64,000 nucleotides of DNA from Candidatus Methylomirabilota bacterium (GTDB lineage: Bacteria > Methylomirabilota > Methylomirabilia > Rokubacteriales > CSP1-6), in the NCBI GenBank assembly GCA_035708525.1, contig DASSSH010000026.1:478-64477 (forward strand). Reading direction: 5' to 3'. Below the pieces are notes generated by a model. It had not been told where the DNA came from. It was given only the letters and a program-made list of their open reading frames with translations, and searched no databases. Numbering within the stretch: the first letter of the stretch is position 1; every line of letters starts with the position of its first letter. Made by a program: the position numbers and the translations under genes. Below, one piece after another: positions 1-60,016 of this stretch.

Positions 1-252
1 CTTTACGAAAAAGGCCATACCTTGCTCTCGGTCTTCATGGTCCCGGCCTCGGCGGCCGGCACCGAGCTGACGGGCAAGCGCGTTCCGTATGGGGGTCGCG
101 AGTACATCACGGCGGAGCGCAAGGGCTACCGCACGGTGTCGTGGACCGATGGGCAGACGGTCTACGGACTGGTGTCTCTCCTCGACTACGATGCTCTGCT
201 CGAGTGTGCCGATCGGCTCCGCGCTGAACGCGCACGCGAAGCGCGGCTGTAG
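1..252 (+). CDS. anti-sigma factor, C-terminal fragment (5' end lies outside the window)
   Basis: Frame 1 is open from the window edge to TAG 250-252. The motif GYRTVSWTDGQTVYGLVSLLDYDALLECADRL resembles the C-terminal end of zf-HC2/ChrR-type anti-sigma factors. Confidence 0.5.
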   Translation, partial: LYEKGHTLLSVFMVPASAAGTELTGKRVPYGGREYITAERKGYRTVSWTDGQTVYGLVSLLDYDALLECADRLRAERAREARL

Positions 253-262
253 CAGTTGCCCG

Positions 263-1366
263 ATGGGGGCTCGGCTCGCGCGGCTCGGGCTCTTGGCGGT
301 GTTGGGCTGCCTGGCCGCCGTCGACAGCTCCCATGCCGGGGCCTTGCGGACCGACCTCAGCAAGGCCTTGGTCCCGTTGGACGAGATCGTCTCGGGCGGC
401 CCTCCCCCCGATGGCATTCCTGCGATCGATCGGCCGAGCTTCGTGACACTGGCCGCGGCCGATGCCTGGCTCAAGCCCAAGGAGCCGGTGGTGGCGCTTG
501 AGATCAGCGGCGACGCCCGGGCCTACCCCCTCCAGATTCTCATGTGGCACGAGATCGTCAACGACACGGTGGGCGGCAGGCCCGTCACCGTCACCTACTG
601 CCCGCTCTGCAACTCGGGGCTCGTCTTCGACCGCGTCGTGGGTGGCGTCACGCTCGACTTCGGCACCTCGGGCAAGCTCTACAAGAGCGATCTGGTCATG
701 TACGATCGGCAGAGTCATTCGCTCTGGGCCCAGATGGAGGGCCGGGCCATCGTCGGTGAGCGGGCGGGGACGCGTCTGGGCCTGATTCCCGCCAACACCG
801 TCGCCTACGAGGATTTCAAGGCGATCTATCCGGGTGGGAAGGTGTTGTCCCGGGAGACGGGCCACGCACGCTCCTACGGACGCAACCCCTATGAGGCCTA
901 CGACCGCCCCGATTCGTCCCCCTTCCTCCTGCAAGGCACGGCCGACCGGCGGCGCCCGCCCAAGGAGCGTGTGGTGGGGGTCCTCATGAGCGGGATGCCC
1001 CGGGCCTATCCGTGGTCGGTGCTCGAGAAGCAGGGCGTACTCCATGACACACTGGGCGGTGAGCCGCTGGTGATCTTCCATCGTCCAGGTGCGCTGTCCG
1101 CGCTGGATGATTCGCGCATGGAACAGTCCCGCGCGATCGGCGCTACGGCCGTGTTCAGCTCTGTGCTGGCTGGCAAGCTACTGACCTTCGAGCGGGTGGC
1201 CGATGGATTCCGCGACAAACAGACCAGCAGCCTCTGGAGCCTGCTGGGCTACGCGACCAAGGGTCCGCTGGCCGGCAAGCGGCTTAAACCGATCCAGCAC
1301 GTGGATGCGTTCTGGTTCGCCTGGGCCGCGTTCAACCCCGCGACCTCGGTCTACGTCACACCGTGA
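263..1366 (+). CDS. DUF3179 domain-containing secreted protein
   Basis: ATG 263 gives the signal peptide MGARLARLGLLAVLGCLAAVDSSHA. DUF3179 motifs are present: DGIPAIDRPSF, YPLQILMWHEIVNDTVGG, VTYCPLCNSG and SGKLYKSDLVMYDRQSHSLW. Confidence 0.85.
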   Translation: MGARLARLGLLAVLGCLAAVDSSHAGALRTDLSKALVPLDEIVSGGPPPDGIPAIDRPSFVTLAAADAWLKPKEPVVALEISGDARAYPLQILMWHEIVNDTVGGRPVTVTYCPLCNSGLVFDRVVGGVTLDFGTSGKLYKSDLVMYDRQSHSLWAQMEGRAIVGERAGTRLGLIPANTVAYEDFKAIYPGGKVLSRETGHARSYGRNPYEAYDRPDSSPFLLQGTADRRRPPKERVVGVLMSGMPRAYPWSVLEKQGVLHDTLGGEPLVIFHRPGALSALDDSRMEQSRAIGATAVFSSVLAGKLLTFERVADGFRDKQTSSLWSLLGYATKGPLAGKRLKPIQHVDAFWFAWAAFNPATSVYVTP

Positions 1367-1956
1367 CCGCCCTCGAGGAGCTCGCCGCCCTGCTCGCAGA
1401 GCTCGAGCGGGCGCGCACATCCATCATGGCCCTGGCGCGTGGCAACTGCGCGCAGGAGCCCTGGAGGCTCTATCCGGGCGAATACGGGATCTTCGACCGC
1501 AAGACGCATAGCCAGTTCTACTACCACTCGCACGAAGGTGCCCGGCACGAGGCCGGCCACTTTCACACTGTCCGCCTCTTCACCGATCGCTCGGTGCATC
1601 TGGTGGCCATCTCCATGGCCGAGACCGGCTGGCCGCAGGCGCTGTTCACCGTCAACGGTTGGGCCATCGGTGACGCCTGGGAACCACCGGAGACGCTCAA
1701 GCAATACATTCGCCGATTCCACATCGGGCCGGGCCGAGGGCCCGCGCCACTGGTCCGGTTCATCAACCTGATGTTTGAGGCCTTCACCCTCGAAATGGAG
1801 CAGCTTCAGGACGACAAGGAGCGTGTGCTGCGGGCTTACTGCGCCGCCCATCCGGGGAAGGATCCCCTCCAAGACTGGTCGCTGGAGATCCTGAGCCGGG
1901 TCGAGATCGACATGAAGGCCCGTCTCGCCGGGCCGGCAGAAGTGGTCAGGCCTTGA
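1363..1956 (+). CDS. hypothetical protein with a His-rich motif (YYHSHEGARHEAGHFH), possibly metal-binding
   Basis: The GTG start overlaps the upstream stop (GTGA at 1363-1366). Third-position GC is coding-like. The protein sits between the DUF3179 gene and the TlpA-like gene, with overlapping junctions on both sides. Confidence 0.65.
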   Translation: MTALEELAALLAELERARTSIMALARGNCAQEPWRLYPGEYGIFDRKTHSQFYYHSHEGARHEAGHFHTVRLFTDRSVHLVAISMAETGWPQALFTVNGWAIGDAWEPPETLKQYIRRFHIGPGRGPAPLVRFINLMFEAFTLEMEQLQDDKERVLRAYCAAHPGKDPLQDWSLEILSRVEIDMKARLAGPAEVVRP

Positions 1957-2516
1957 TCCGCGCACGGATCCTCGCCGTGCTCGTCGGGGTGGTCGCGCTC
2001 GGCGGGGTCTTGCAAGTGGCCGCCGTGGGCCCGGATCCGACGCTCGGGGCGGATCTCTGGCGGGTCGCAGGCATCGCGCGGGCCGGTCGCCAGGTCGCCG
2101 CGCCGTCGTTCCAGCTGCAGGATATCGCCGGGAACCGGGTCGAGCTGCGCCAGCTCCGCGGGCGAATCGTGCTGGTCTACTTCTGGGGCTCGTGGTGACC
2201 GCACTGCACGAGGGAGTTGCCCTCGGTGGATGGGCTGCACGAGAAGCTGGCGCGAGAAGGGCTCACCGTTCTCCTCGTGAACATCGGGGAGACCCGTGAG
2301 ACCGTGGTCCGGGCCCTGGCGTCGCGCCGCTACACAGCCCCCGTGTTCCTCGACTCGAACGGCAAGACCAGCGAGTCCTATCGCGTCGCAGGCACCCCCA
2401 CGGTGTTCATCATCGGTCGGGACGGGATGATCCTCGGGAGTGCCGTGGGCCCTGGCCCCTGGGCGGAACCGGCCGGGCGCGCGCTGCTCGAAGCGCTGCT
2501 CCGCGGTCGAACGTAA
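1953..2516 (+). CDS. TlpA/ResA-like thiol:disulfide oxidoreductase, selenocysteine-containing (UGA 2196-2198 read as Sec)
   Basis: ORFs 1953..2198 and 2217..2516 are in the same frame. The junction reads VLVYFWGSW-[TGA]-PHC-TRELPSV, the thioredoxin-fold WCxxC site. There is an N-terminal membrane anchor and a C-terminal AGTPTVFIIGRDG motif. The TTG start overlaps the upstream TGA (TTGA). Confidence 0.8.
2204..2229 (+). promoter_or_regulatory. putative bacterial SECIS hairpin for UGA 2196
   Basis: CGAGGG-AGUUG-CCCUCG at 2209-2225. It can be extended by 4 pairs with a bulged A at 2208. The loop A lies 19 nt from the U of UGA. Confidence 0.6.
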
Positions 2517-4987: not shown

Positions 4988-5410
4988 ATGGGACGAGATG
5001 GCCTGCTGATCGGTGAGGTGGCGAAGCAGAGCGGCGCAAGCCGGAAGGCGCTGCGGCTGTATGAGACCGCGGGTATCCTTCCCGCTCCCCGCCGCACCGG
5101 GGCGGGCTATCGCGTGTACGGAGCCGACACGCTGGCGCTCCTCTCGTTCGTCCGGCGGGCGCAGCGACTCGGCTTCTCCCTGGAGGAGATCAAGGAGATC
5201 GTCGCCATCCGGCGAGCGGGACGCGCTCCATGCCCTCACGTCCGTGAGCTTGTCCGACGGAAGACCGAGGAACTCGACCGGCGGCTCACGGACCTGATGG
5301 AGGTGCGTGCTGGCCTTCGAGCCCTGGTGAAGGGCTGGCGCTCTTCGGGGCAGGGCCGCGCGGCGGTCTGCCCGCACATCGAGCGCGGCACTGGTCAGAG
5401 GGGGAGGTGA
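4988..5410 (+). CDS. MerR family (heavy-metal/CueR-like) transcriptional regulator
   Basis: N-terminal HTH LIGEVAKQSGASRKALRLYETAGILP..R...GYR.Y, a coiled-coil dimerisation helix, and two CPH motifs (APCPHV, VCPHIE). Confidence 0.9.
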   Translation: MGRDGLLIGEVAKQSGASRKALRLYETAGILPAPRRTGAGYRVYGADTLALLSFVRRAQRLGFSLEEIKEIVAIRRAGRAPCPHVRELVRRKTEELDRRLTDLMEVRAGLRALVKGWRSSGQGRAAVCPHIERGTGQRGR

Positions 5411-5416
5411 GAAGTG

Positions 5417-5557
5417 ATGCCTTGGAAGAAGGGTGAGGTGTACAGGTGCCCTGACCCCAACTGCGGGTGTGAGGTCGCGGTGACGAGAGAGCCGAGGCCT
5501 GGGATGGGAGGCGATCGGGCACCGGCCTGCTGCTGCGGCAAGACCATGACGAAGTAG
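5417..5557 (+). CDS. small Cys-rich desulforedoxin-like metal-binding protein (46 aa)
   Basis: MPWKKGEVYRCPDPNCGCEVAVT...APACCCGKTMTK matches the Dx pattern VY.C..CG..V.V...CCG..M. A GGGGGAGG RBS is present. The gene is too short for the ORF track. Confidence 0.55.
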   Translation: MPWKKGEVYRCPDPNCGCEVAVTREPRPGMGGDRAPACCCGKTMTK

Positions 5558-5583
5558 AACGTCCAAACAAGGAGGGATAGAGG

Positions 5584-5754
5584 ATGGACAGCCTGAAGAT
5601 GTCGCTGTGCCCGGCGTGTACCGCGTGCCCTGAAGTCGAGATCGCCGGGGACGAGGTCAGGATCGGCGAAACCGGCAACCTTGCCGTGCTGAAGCGAGAC
5701 GAATGGAACGTGCTGGTAGACCTGATCCAGGCGGGCCAGCTGTCGAAGCTCTGA
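5584..5754 (+). CDS. small hypothetical protein with a CPACTACP motif (56 aa)
   Basis: An AAGGAGGG RBS lies 8 nt upstream. The product is MDSLKMSLCPACTACPEVEIAGDEVRIGETGNLAVLKRDEWNVLVDLIQAGQLSKL, with high third-position GC. Confidence 0.45.
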   Translation: MDSLKMSLCPACTACPEVEIAGDEVRIGETGNLAVLKRDEWNVLVDLIQAGQLSKL

Positions 5755-6958: not shown

Positions 6959-7441
6959 ATGCGACGCGGACTGATCGCGGCAGTCCTCTTGGGCCTGGGC
7001 GCGACCGTGAGCTGGGCCGCGACGCCGGCCCCGACCTTCATCTTGCCCCTCATCCAGGGCGGTAAGGTGTTCGATTCCAAAGCCGAGATCGGCAGGCGGG
7101 TCCTGGTTGTCCGCTTCCAGGCCTCCTGGTGACCCACCTGCGTGCAGGAGTCTCCTGCATTCGAGAAAGCCTACCGGAAGTACAAGACGCGTGGCGTCGA
7201 GTTCGTGGGCGTCCAGGTGCAGGACGAGGAGGCTGACGCCCGGCGGTTCCTCAAGGCTCACCAGGCGACCTATCCCGCAGGGCTCGATCCCGATCTGGCT
7301 ATCGCCAAGCGCTTCGGCTACACAGCGACGCCTCTGACCGTCATCATTGACCGTCAGGGCAACATCGCCGCGCGCCAGTTCGGGCCGGCGGACGACACCT
7401 GGATCGCCGCCCACCTCGCCCCGTTGCTCAAGCCCAAGTAG
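6959..7441 (+). CDS. TlpA-like periplasmic thiol:disulfide oxidoreductase, selenocysteine-containing (UGA 7130-7132 read as Sec)
   Basis: AAAGGAGG RBS, then the signal peptide MRRGLIAAVLLGLGATVSWA. The junction reads RVLVVRFQASW-[TGA]-PTC-VQESPAFEKAYRKYKTRGVEFVGVQVQD. ORFs 6905..7132 and 7142..7441 are in the same frame. Confidence 0.8.
7142..7160 (+). promoter_or_regulatory. putative bacterial SECIS hairpin for UGA 7130
   Basis: UGCAGG-AGUCU-CCUGCA at 7143-7159. The loop A at 7149 lies 19 nt from the U of UGA. Confidence 0.6.
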
Positions 7442-46120: not shown

Positions 46121-46693
46121 CTACTGGTCGCGGCCCATCGTGTAGAACTCGCGGTTCGGCCGCATGGCCGCCAGATTCGCCATGCGGTTGGACAGGTTGA
46201 AGAAGGCCGCGACCGCGCCGATGTCCCAGATGTCCGACTCGCTGAACCCGTGCCGCCGGAGCGGCTCGAAATCAGCCTCCTCGATGCCGGCCGAGTCGAG
46301 CGTGACCTTCACCGCGAAATCCAGCATGGCCCGCTGGCGCGGCGTGAGGTCCGCGTGGCGGTAGTTTGCGGTGATCTGGTCGGCGATCAGGGGGTGCTTC
46401 GACAGGACACGGAGCGCCGCTCCGTGAGCGACCGTTCAGTAGGCGCAGGAATTGGCGGCGCTGACAGCGACCACGATCATCTCGCGCTCGGCACGCGACA
46501 GCCCCGACTCCCCCCGCATGAGGACCTCATAGTAGTGGAAGAAGGCGCGGAAATGATCGGGCTTCCACGCGTACGCGAGAAAGACATTGGGGGTGAAGCC
46601 GGATTTCTTGGCGATCGCCTCGATGGCCTGCTTGAGGTCGGCGGGCAGGTCGGCGGGGTCGGCCACGGGGAAGCGGCTGATCGGCTCGGTCAT
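46121..46693 (-). CDS. AhpD-like peroxidase-related enzyme, selenocysteine-containing (UGA at 46438-46436 read as Sec)
   Basis: ORFs 46436..46786 and 46121..46327 are in the same frame. The junction reads EREMIVVAVSAANSCAY-[TGA]-TVAHGAAL, the CxxCxxxH AhpD core motif with TGA at the second Cys. ATG 46693 overlaps the upstream stop (ATGA). Confidence 0.82.
46408..46426 (-). promoter_or_regulatory. putative bacterial SECIS hairpin for UGA 46438
   Basis: CACGGAGC-GGC-GCUCCGUG, an 8-bp stem (or 7 bp with pentaloop CGGCG), starting 9 nt after the UGA. Confidence 0.6.
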
Positions 46694-57664: not shown

Positions 57665-59296
57665 TCAGCGCTGATACTTGGTCGGAGTCCGGCGGGGCAG
57701 GAAGAAGACGGGGCGCGACATCCGGCCCACCGGCACCTCGATCAGCACCGGCCGGTCCATCTGGACGGCCTCCGAAACGAGACGGCCCACCTCAGTGGGT
57801 TCTTTTGCGCGCAGGCCACGCACCCCGAAGGCCTCGGCCAGCTTCATGAAGTCGGGGTTGGAGAGCTCGGCGCCGTAGGCGCCGCCCCACGATTCGTCCA
57901 GGTCCCGCGCGACGTTGCCGTAGGCGTTGTCGTTGAAGACCACGCTGACCACGTTGATCTTGTACCGGACGGCGGTGGCCAGCTCCTGGGCGTTGTACAT
58001 GAAGCCGCCGTCTCCCGAGACGGCGACGACCGGCCGATCCGGCTGGGCGACCTTGGCTCCCAGCGCCACCGGGAAGGCGTAGCCGAGGTTGCCGGAGTAG
58101 GACGAGCTCAGATAGGTCCGCGGCGCGTACACGGGCCAGAACGGGCGCGAGTAGTAGCCGATCTGGTTCATCCCGGCGACCAGGATGGCGTCCTCCGGCG
58201 TCCCGGCGCGCAGGCTCTTGAGGATCGAGGCCTGAGGCTCCTGGGTGGCGAGGGCGGCCACCTGACCCCGCAGCGCCTGGAACTCCGCCTTGCGCGAGGG
58301 CTTCGGCGGCCCGGCGGCGCGCAGTCGCTCCAGCAGCGCTTCGAGCGTTGCCCGCCCATCGCCGACCAGTCCCACCGCCACCGGATGATTGCGGCCGATC
58401 TCTTCCGGGTCCACGTCGAGCTGGATGATGCGCTGGTCGCGCTGGAAGGAGACGAGCGCCAGTCGTGAGCCCACGGCGAGCACCACGTCGGCCGCGTGCA
58501 CGTGGGCGCGCAGCGGTGATTCGCGCCAGAAGGCCGCGCCCAGGGCGAGATCGCTGTGGTCGCTCACGGCGCCCTTGCCCTCCGCGGAGGTGACGACGCC
58601 CGCCTGGAGGTGCTCGGCGACCGCGGCCAGGGCATCGTGGCAGCCCGAGAGGTGGACGCCGCCGCCGGCGTAGATGACGGGCGCCGCGGCGGCGAGCAGC
58701 AGCTCGGCGGCGCGGTCGAGGTCGGCGGCCGGCGCGGGGGACCGGGTGACGGTCGGGGGCTCGATGAGCTCGACCTCGCCTTCGTCCTCCATGGTCTCCG
58801 GCGGCATCTCGATCTCGACGGGGCGGGGCCGGCCGGTCCGGAGCTGCGTGACGGCCTCGCTCACGGCCGCGGGGATCTCGCCGATCTCGAGGACGCGCCG
58901 GCGCCACTTGGTCACGGGAGCGATGGCGTCGAGCTGGTCGTTGACCTCGTGGAGGAGCCCGATGTTCTTGCCGATGCTGGCCCGCGGGATCTGGCCCGCA
59001 ATCATCAGGACCGGGGAGGAGGCGGCGTAGGCCGTGCTCAGCCCGGACATGGCGTTGAGGAGCCCGGGGCCCGGGACCACGAGCGCGGTGCCGAAGTCTC
59101 CGCCGGCGCGCGCATAGCCGTCGGCCATGAAGCTCGTGGCCTGCTCGTGGCGTGTCGCGATGAAGCGGATCCGCGGCTCGTCGCGCAGCGCCGCCATCAC
59201 GCCGTAGAGCTGGACGCCGGGCAACCCGAAGATCACCCGCACGCCGGCGGCGAACAGGGAGCGGACGAGCGCCTCCCCGCCGGTCATCACCGCCAT
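57665..59296 (-). CDS. thiamine pyrophosphate-dependent enzyme (acetolactate synthase large-subunit-like)
   Basis: [53 protein letters not shown]. Confidence 0.9.
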
Positions 59297-59452
59297 CGTG
59301 TAAGCTCCCCTCGCAGGGCCTCGTGCGTGCCAGGCATCACGACGGGGCAGTATACCAGACGGGCGCTCGCTTGACGCCCCGCCGCCTCGCTGCAACAATC
59401 CGGGCGACGCCGAGGCGACGCGAACGACCCATTCGAGCCGCGGAGGGGAGCC

Positions 59453-60016
59453 ATGCCCATCACACGGATGCTGGAGCTCGACGAGCTGGAGCCGGCCCTG
59501 CGCGAGGCGGCGGAGAAGTGGGGCGCCCAGGGCGGCAACGTGAACATGCACCGGGTATTCGGCCAGATGCCCGACTTCTTCAAGAAGTTCGTCGAGTTCT
59601 ACGGGCCGCTGGTCAACCACGGGCGCGTCCCCGTGCGCGTCAAGGAGCTGGCGCGCATCCGTGTGGCCAACCTCAACGAGTGCCACTACTGACAGAAGAC
59701 CCGCTACGCCTTGGCAAGGCGGGTGACGAGGGAAGCCGAGCTCGAGCGGGTGGACGACTTCGAGGCCGCTGAGTTCAGCCCGGCGGAGAAGGCCGTGCTG
59801 CGCTTCACCGAGGCTTTCTACCGCGACCACAAGACGGTTCCCGATTCGGTGTGGAGCGACTTGCGCCGGCACTACAGCGAGCCCGAGATCATCGAGCTCG
59901 CCTGGACGATCGCGGCCTACATCATGCTGGGCAAGCTGATCTACGCCTTCCGCATTCCGTACGGTGACGAGGGCAGCGGGCCCCGAGGCGGAGCCATCCC
60001 GGAGGAACGCCCATGA
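59453..60016 (+). CDS. carboxymuconolactone decarboxylase/AhpD-like family selenoprotein (UGA 59690-59692 read as Sec)
   Basis: ORFs 59453..59692 and 59711..60016 are in the same frame. The junction reads VKELARIRVANLNECHY-[TGA]-QKTRYAL, i.e. CxxC with TGA at the second Cys. The downstream FSPAEKAVLRFTEAF...EIIELAWTIA is CMD-like. The stop overlaps the next gene's start (ATGA). Confidence 0.78.
59707..59721 (+). promoter_or_regulatory. putative bacterial SECIS hairpin for UGA 59690
   Basis: CGCCUU-GGC-AAGGCG, starting 14 nt after the UGA. An alternative outer pairing is CCCGC/GCGGG (59700-59723). Confidence 0.5.

Follow-up and report, generated by a model that had tools for sequence, protein, structure and literature searches.

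Gene organisation and active site

The stretch of DNA analysed here (referred to as the window; 64,000 nucleotides of contig DASSSH010000026.1, assigned to a Candidatus Methylomirabilota bacterium) harbours a gene for a TlpA/ResA-like redoxin with an in-frame TGA at positions 2196-2198. Comparative sequence analysis indicates that this UGA is very probably a genuine selenocysteine (Sec) codon, situated in the active site of a thioredoxin-fold thiol-disulfide oxidoreductase. Two open reading frames (ORFs), 1953..2198 and 2217..2516, share a frame on the plus strand, and the gap between them consists of the TGA and six sense codons (PHCTRE, 2199-2216). Read through, the junction becomes RIVLVYFWGSW-[TGA]-PHC-TRELPSV, with TRELPSVDGLHEK following PHC in the 187-residue product. 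Coordinates and translation agree with the original prediction, which had described two ORFs in one frame divided only by the TGA and six codons; 1953..2516 is one gene, split in two by gene callers. Its TTG start (1953) shares bases with the TGA stop of the preceding gene (TTGA) and agrees with the orthologues, whose start is at the corresponding M-R-R-A-L-L. The N-terminus resembles a signal peptide or a membrane anchor (Table 1), and the redoxin is presumably exported.

Domain and structure comparisons were made with U replaced by C. The Pfam domain AhpC-TSA extends across the junction (2.3e-24, residues 49-160, 86.2 bits against a cut-off of 26), as does Redoxin (7.7e-21, 74.9 bits against a cut-off of 26.6). 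Among solved structures, the best matches are variants of B. subtilis ResA (1.6e-23), the W-C-x-x-C of which falls exactly on W-U-P-H-C, while the E-x-P after the motif and the T-P-T cis-proline loop also align; Bradyrhizobium TlpA (1jfu) is matched at 1.5e-13. A cis-proline loop is typical of thioredoxin-fold active sites. The W-C-x-x-C motif, the cis-Pro loop and the Glu/Pro signature of TlpA-like redoxins are hence all present, with predicted Sec in place of the first Cys. Three further points of the original prediction are borne out by these comparisons: the junction corresponds to an FWxxW-C-x-x-C site with TGA at the first Cys (WCPHC of ResA aligning on WUPHC), neither half forms a thioredoxin fold alone (Pfam match and ResA alignment both pass unbroken over the junction), and Cys homologues, including the full-length Cys forms described below, align across it.

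The nearest NCBIfam models for the redoxin are ResA (NF002854, 90.1 against a cut-off of 170), StoA (NF041202, 78 against 210) and TlpA (NF047696, 60.7 against 230). As these scores lie far below the cut-offs, an orthologue of ResA, StoA or TlpA was ruled out, and the protein is best regarded as a TlpA-like family member that is the orthologue of no named protein.

The split might alternatively reflect two separate products, namely a secreted 81-residue peptide terminated by the UGA and a protein of 99 residues initiated from TTG 2217, and automatic annotation treats all homologues in this manner. The chances of this are slender. Neither half is a complete thioredoxin fold, with domain and ResA alignment uninterrupted between them; the six codons PHCTRE between TGA and TTG are conserved and include that of the resolving Cys; and other subclades (for example, the CLRERAAL forms) have no start codon at this place. 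The lack of a fold in either half, the Cys-bearing intervening codons and the start-less subclades together render two products implausible, as against a single read-through selenoprotein.

Conservation of the UGA codon

In a search of a collection of 5.8 billion proteins, the seven closest entries (57-81% identity) were all C-terminal halves of 103-126 aa. Since these entries are truncated, the family is invisible to ordinary annotation; in the public assemblies examined, the gene and its relatives have been wrongly annotated as two fragments. The DNA retrieved for P0001, P0002, P0003 and P0007 contains the in-frame TGA, and the N-terminal half is conserved in frame at the amino-acid level. 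The TGA stands in the same column in the window and in the loci L001, L003, L007 and L008, and it recurs in this column in independent assemblies from NCBI, ENA, JGI and Logan. Furthermore, a metagenome scan with the pattern TTYTGGNNNNNNTGGTGACCNCAYTGY, which left the downstream sequence free and yields counts that are lower bounds, gave at least 76 distinct TlpA-like read-through redoxins with the motif FW[GAT][ST]W-U-PHC; 7 sequences from the same scan, mostly out-of-frame chance matches, were set aside as junk.

With the C-terminal half as query, an exhaustive HMMER search returned more truncated halves, beginning at the TTG-encoded Leu, as well as full-length Cys forms with the same flanks, for example P0025 (FWATW-C-PHC-SRELPSS) and P0021 (FWATW-C-PYC-SRELPST). 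The column of residue 82 holds Cys in ResA, P0014, P0021, P0025 (FWATWCPHCSRELPS) and P0033. Because full-length Cys forms carry the same flanks, the Sec and Cys sequences constitute a classical Sec/Cys pair at short evolutionary distance. A scan of contigs with the Cys version of the pattern (VYFWGSWC) gave distant Cys homologues only (identity of at most 43%).

These results bear on the possibility that the locus is a pseudogene, or that the TGA is an assembly or sequencing error from a Cys codon (TGC/TGT) in an ordinary TlpA-like gene. A single base change (TGC to TGA) would suffice, and the splitting of the gene by gene callers would be in keeping with it; nevertheless, it is very improbable, more so than two products, as the same TGA is found in independent assemblies from four sources and in the at least 76 distinct sequences, amino-acid conservation extends over both halves, and the downstream hairpin (see below) covaries and is held by rare codons absent from the Cys forms. 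With the TGA recurring in independent assemblies and with conservation on both sides of it, a read error or a pseudogene is effectively excluded, and the Sec codon is left as the preferred reading.

Two related arrangements were observed. The metagenome scan also gave at least 33 distinct Trx2-like selenothioredoxins with the motif AEFWAPW-U-PHC (L074, L080, L090, L092-L094, L099-L101 and others), which have an N-terminal CxxC...CxxC zinc-finger-like segment and a conserved hairpin of their own, UUCGCACC-GGY-GGUGCGAA, with paired changes (for example, UUUGCACA-GGU-UGUGCAA). In L008 (2269..2939), a complete Sec copy (FWTTW-U-PHC) is followed by a tandem copy, P0007, with an ATGA overlap; this second copy is without the N-terminal half and active site, and the pair adjoins a multicopper oxidase gene.

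The downstream hairpin

The position and sequence of the hairpin CGAGGG-AGUUG-CCCUCG (2209-2225), which begins 10 nt after the UGA, are as the original prediction had given them. It had further been proposed to be a bacterial selenocysteine insertion sequence (SECIS), an assignment that is upheld by the published bacterial criteria and by covariation. According to these criteria, the loop has 3-9 nt with a G in its first two positions, the stem has at least 4 bp, the distance from the UGA is 16-37 nt and the minimum free energy is -7.5 kcal/mol or lower (PMC13188914). The hairpin falls within every one of these limits: it has a 5-nt loop with G second, followed by U, a 6-bp stem and a UGA-to-loop spacing of 16 nt, and alone it folds at -9.1 kcal/mol.

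Covariation was assessed on a gapless RNA alignment of 55 distinct 42-nt segments, for which the RNAalifold consensus is exactly the 6-bp hairpin. Across the 55 sequences, 99.1% of the cells are paired; sliding the partners by 1-3 columns lowers this to about 53%. Compensatory changes occur at four of the six pairs (C-G to G-C or U-A, A-U to C-G or G-C, and G-C to A-U). The observed pairing and covariation values were reached in none of 500 column shuffles. The loop reads AGUUN, with G21, U22 and U23 invariant. Where subclades carry another peptide after the motif (C-x-RER-x-AL including CLRERAAL, CRSQEAA and CTRERSS), unrelated hairpins occur at almost the same offset. At this offset, 75 of the 76 Sec forms among the matches listed have a hairpin of 5 bp or more, as do 11 of 71 distant Cys homologues and 21% of the coding positions of the window. 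As far as sequence comparison can establish it, this evidence is decisive for a hairpin beyond chance.

The codons that encode the hairpin provide the clearest result. Within the 50 distinct x-R-E-L-P-S sequences, Arg is always AGG (50/50), Leu always TTG or TTA (50/50) and Pro always CCC (50/50), while Thr is ACG in 37/37 and Ser is TCG in 49/50. Elsewhere in the same alignment, the Leu codons are mostly CTG or CTC, and in the genes of the window AGG accounts for 4% of the Arg codons and TTG for 4.6% of the Leu codons. In the four distinct close Cys forms, Arg is CGG or CGC; three of them (the SRELPS and RRELP forms) have CTG for Leu, and the TREMPS form, with CGC for Arg, has Met where Leu stands. 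Each of the four has either lost the hairpin or keeps it in weakened form. When the peptide was recoded with the codon usage of the window, the native energy was reached in 0.7% of 3000 trials. On this comparative footing, the hairpin is a constrained RNA element and no by-product of the protein, and the constraint on what is a well-supported coding-region SECIS can be read at synonymous sites, by comparing the Sec with the Cys forms.

An extended lower stem may surround the core hairpin in the window (Table 1); it is not conserved in register among the homologues and is therefore weakly supported. The sole Rfam match around the site at E-values up to 10, RydC, was rejected as a chance match.

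Predicted selenocysteine decoding in the source genome

Several observations weigh against the reading of the UGA as Sec. Dinucleotide shuffles of 2196-2260 fold as well as the native sequence (z = -0.10); in DNA of 67% G+C, with z not significant, the stability of the hairpin relative to shuffles is no evidence. Only four distinct Cys forms served as controls at the DNA level, and the conservation of the hairpin partly overlaps that of the protein motif E-x-P. Rfam returned nothing at the gathering threshold in the whole window. Finally, none of selA, selB, selD and tRNA-Sec lies within the 64-kb window, and tRNA-Sec was not found in 192 related loci (1.6 Mb). Pfam searches of the 52 predicted proteins of the window (including three other TGA candidates) likewise gave metabolic, transport and regulatory genes only, and no sel genes. 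As the window holds no sel genes, we infer the Sec-decoding capacity of the genome, and the dependence on SelB and the insertion of selenium are likewise presumed.

The absence of Sec machinery from the window would also suit a general reassignment or read-through of UGA (for example, as Trp or Gly), with a standard amino acid at residue 82, and lineages with reassigned UGA exist. However, this explanation deserves as little credence as a sequencing error or pseudogene: TGA is the commonest ordinary stop, ending 31 of the 51 crude gene calls in the window, including that of the gene directly upstream (1954-1956), which excludes a general reassignment; few in-frame TGAs have a two-sided coding signal, and the convincing ones are at redox Cys positions; a position-specific hairpin would be needless; and Trp or Gly at the catalytic Cys would inactivate the enzyme. 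Selenocysteine is further favoured by three other redox genes in the same 64 kb, each with an in-frame TGA at a canonical Cys position (described below). The presence of four TGA candidates within 64 kb speaks strongly for an organism that uses Sec and is rich in selenoproteins, and the source organism appears to use Sec heavily.

In the mechanism proposed, UGA 2196-2198 would be recoded co-translationally, with the hairpin 2209-2225, as a bacterial SECIS, bringing SelB-GTP-Sec-tRNA(Sec) to the ribosome. In the exported protein, the selenolate of U82 would attack the disulfide of the substrate and Cys85 would resolve the mixed selenenylsulfide.

Comparison with known systems

In its active site and fold the window protein resembles ResA (PDB 1st9; CPHC-motif chain 3c71) and TlpA (1jfu), with W-C-x-x-C ... 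E-x-P and the cis-Pro loop in common, and with a putative counterpart to their N-terminal anchor; unlike the window protein, for which Sec is predicted, both use Cys. Both ResA and TlpA act as extracytoplasmic reductases. The window protein has the P-H dipeptide of the DsbA-type CPHC, whereas wild-type ResA has E-P, and with this dipeptide the Sec-redoxin may act in either direction, as reductase or as oxidase.

Homologues of thiol-disulfide oxidoreductases with a UxxC motif have been predicted as selenoproteins since 2004-2005 and are listed in current reviews. The families listed comprise the Prx-like thiol:disulfide oxidoreductase (PF00578), the thiol:disulfide interchange protein and the thiol-disulfide isomerase-like family (cd02966), of which the first was described by Kryukov & Gladyshev 2004 and is tabulated in PMC13188914. 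Both the PF00578 domain and the UxxC motif of the Prx-like family are found here, its type sequence (WP_010940744.1) having been matched by description only. Thioredoxin fold, AhpC-TSA/Redoxin matches, predicted Sec as the first residue of UxxC and a coding-region SECIS directly downstream are shared with this family; in contrast to its type members (WP_010940744.1 and MGB1650493.1, set apart by description), the clade of the window gene has the signature FW[GAT][ST]W-U-PHC-x-RELPS, a SECIS sequence of its own (CGAGGG-AGUUR-CCCUCG) and a conserved operon setting. Thioredoxin-fold selenoproteins are also modelled in NCBIfam, where the matches are weak and below cut-off: WAxxUGC_long (NF041054, 59.3 against 300), TUGYCR (NF053656, 18.6 against 100) and SelL-related (NF040769, 25.9 against 120). 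The motifs of these models are UGC and TUGYCR, as opposed to W-U-P-H-C in the present case.

With respect to the RNA element, a loop of 3-9 nt, an early GU and a stem of at least 4 bp are held in common with the bacterial SECIS consensus (the bSECISearch model, with E. coli fdhF as prototype). It differs from a typical bacterial SECIS in having a spacing at the lower bound of 16-37 nt, a very short minihelix of 17 nt and no evident bulged U. The gene belongs to a known kind of UxxC selenoprotein, with its own signature, SECIS sequence and conserved operon, and involves no new mechanism. Knowledge of how Sec is decoded is unchanged by it, and a selenoprotein specialist would find it unsurprising.

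Further candidate selenoprotein genes in the window

Coordinates of the redoxin gene, its operon neighbours and the other TGA candidates are collected in Table 1.

Table 1. Features of the redoxin locus and further TGA candidates (window coordinates)
Feature	Position	Strand	Description
Predicted selenoprotein gene, TlpA/ResA-like thioredoxin-fold redoxin	1953..2516	+	Complete, 187 codons, TTG start, TAA stop, U-P-H-C active site
Putative signal peptide or membrane anchor MIRARILAVLVGVVALGGVLQVAAVG	1953..2030 (end approximate)	+	From translation: basic n-region, then hydrophobic stretch; orthologues alike
UGA predicted to be read as selenocysteine, residue 82	2196..2198	+	Replaces the N-terminal attacking Cys of CxxC
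TGC, Cys85, resolving Cys of U-P-H-C	2205..2207	+	Aligned to the second Cys of the ResA CxxC
GAG, Glu88 of the C-x-x-E-x-P signature	2214..2216	+	Matches the conserved Glu after CxxC in ResA (...CPHCKKEFP...)
CCC, Pro149 in G-T-P-T, cis-proline loop	2397..2399	+	Aligned to ResA 'lPtTf'; kept in all listed homologues
Putative SECIS core hairpin CGAGGG-AGUUG-CCCUCG	2209-2225	+	Stem 2209-2214/2220-2225, 6 bp; apical loop 2215-2219, AGUUG
Possible extended lower stem around the core hairpin	2199..2234	+	Minimum-free-energy structure, window only
Anti-sigma factor (zf-HC2 type), C-terminal end	22..252	+	tblastn to zf-HC2 genes after the ECF sigma gene in L003-L006 and others
Secreted DUF3179 protein, C-P-L-C motif	263..1366	+	Pfam DUF3179, 4.9e-109
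DUF6969 protein	1363..1956	+	Pfam DUF6969, 7.9e-35; TGA stop overlaps the redoxin TTG
Second split Redoxin/AhpC-TSA gene	6959..7441, TGA 7130-7132	+	Motif RFQASW-U-PTC; Redoxin 1.4e-24 (U replaced by C)
CMD/AhpD-like gene	46121..46690, TGA 46438-46436	-	VSAANSCAY-U-TVAH; CMD 1.6e-16 (U replaced by C)
Second CMD-family gene	59453..60016, TGA 59690-59692	+	RVANLNECHY-U-QKTR; CMD 6.3e-09 across the junction

The second split redoxin gene has a perfect hairpin of 7 bp (UGCAGGA-GUC-UCCUGCA), whose start lies at an offset from the U of the UGA, 14 nt, equal to that in the main gene. The TGA is retained by the orthologues in L179 (86% aa identity) and L122 (76%), and none of 3000 synonymous recodings reached the native energy. 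The TGA of the CMD/AhpD-like gene stands at the second position of the N-x-C-x-Y-C core, with an 8-bp hairpin (CACGGAGC-GGC-GCUCCGUG) downstream. CMD-like and AhpD-like CxxU proteins are among the selenoprotein families listed in reviews, and this gene probably encodes a CxxU selenoprotein of a listed family. The hairpin downstream of the TGA in the second CMD-family gene is no better than those of synonymous recodings, 42% of which reach its energy. This gene is overlapped by a minus-strand ORF, 57665..59872, in which the thiamine pyrophosphate (TPP)-enzyme domains begin at residue 196; as they start only there, the true gene probably begins near 59290. For comparison, 63 selenoprotein genes have been predicted in one Methylomirabilota metagenome-assembled genome (PMC13188914).

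Operon context and possible function

The Sec-redoxin gene is the last of an operon with the order extracytoplasmic function (ECF) sigma factor, anti-sigma factor, DUF3179, DUF6969 and Sec-redoxin. At least 20 contigs have DUF3179 upstream of the Sec-redoxin, and most of them also have DUF6969 there; contigs that are long enough have the zf-HC2 anti-sigma gene upstream, and in the annotated loci L003-L006 the ECF sigma gene precedes it. In the window, the anti-sigma gene is probably cut by the edge, position 22 being only the first start codon of the listed ORF. The C-P-L-C motif of the operon's DUF3179 protein is invariant (TVTYCPLCNSGL). No mention of this ECF sigma/anti-sigma/DUF3179/DUF6969 operon was found in the two selenoprotein reviews compared here. 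DUF3179 is tabulated as a UxxC/T selenoprotein family (PMC13188914).

Taken together with its neighbours, the redoxin probably serves in redox maintenance of the envelope, possibly with the DUF3179 protein as its partner, which it may reduce or oxidise. The conserved link to the ECF-sigma operon provides a testable hypothesis for both uncharacterised proteins, DUF3179 and DUF6969. A more specific proposal, which we put forward tentatively and consider rather doubtful at present, is that the Sec-redoxin could be the dedicated redox partner of the secreted CPLC DUF3179 protein, within an envelope module under ECF-sigma control that would occur widely among high-G+C soil bacteria whose selenoproteomes are unusually large. 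If true, it would offer a first functional clue to two domains of unknown function and to why Sec is favoured in an envelope redox relay of oxic soil.

Several minor observations concern the neighbouring genes. A distant DUF3179 relative (probably L115) reads AATW-TGA-PLCYTGI, an apparent Sec form. The DUF6969 protein has a His-rich stretch, YYHSHEGARHEAGHFH, which suggests metal binding; in the loci that have it, its gene always stands between those for DUF3179 and the Sec-redoxin. Further downstream in the window, a gene for a MerR-family regulator (4988..5410, plus strand) is followed by two small ORFs up to 5754, neither with a Pfam match, of which 5414..5557 (47 aa) is Cys-rich (CPDPNCGC ... 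CCCG); the region 4988..5754, close to the redoxin operon, might represent a metal-responsive unit. In L179, the Sec-redoxin is immediately followed by a MerR homologue.

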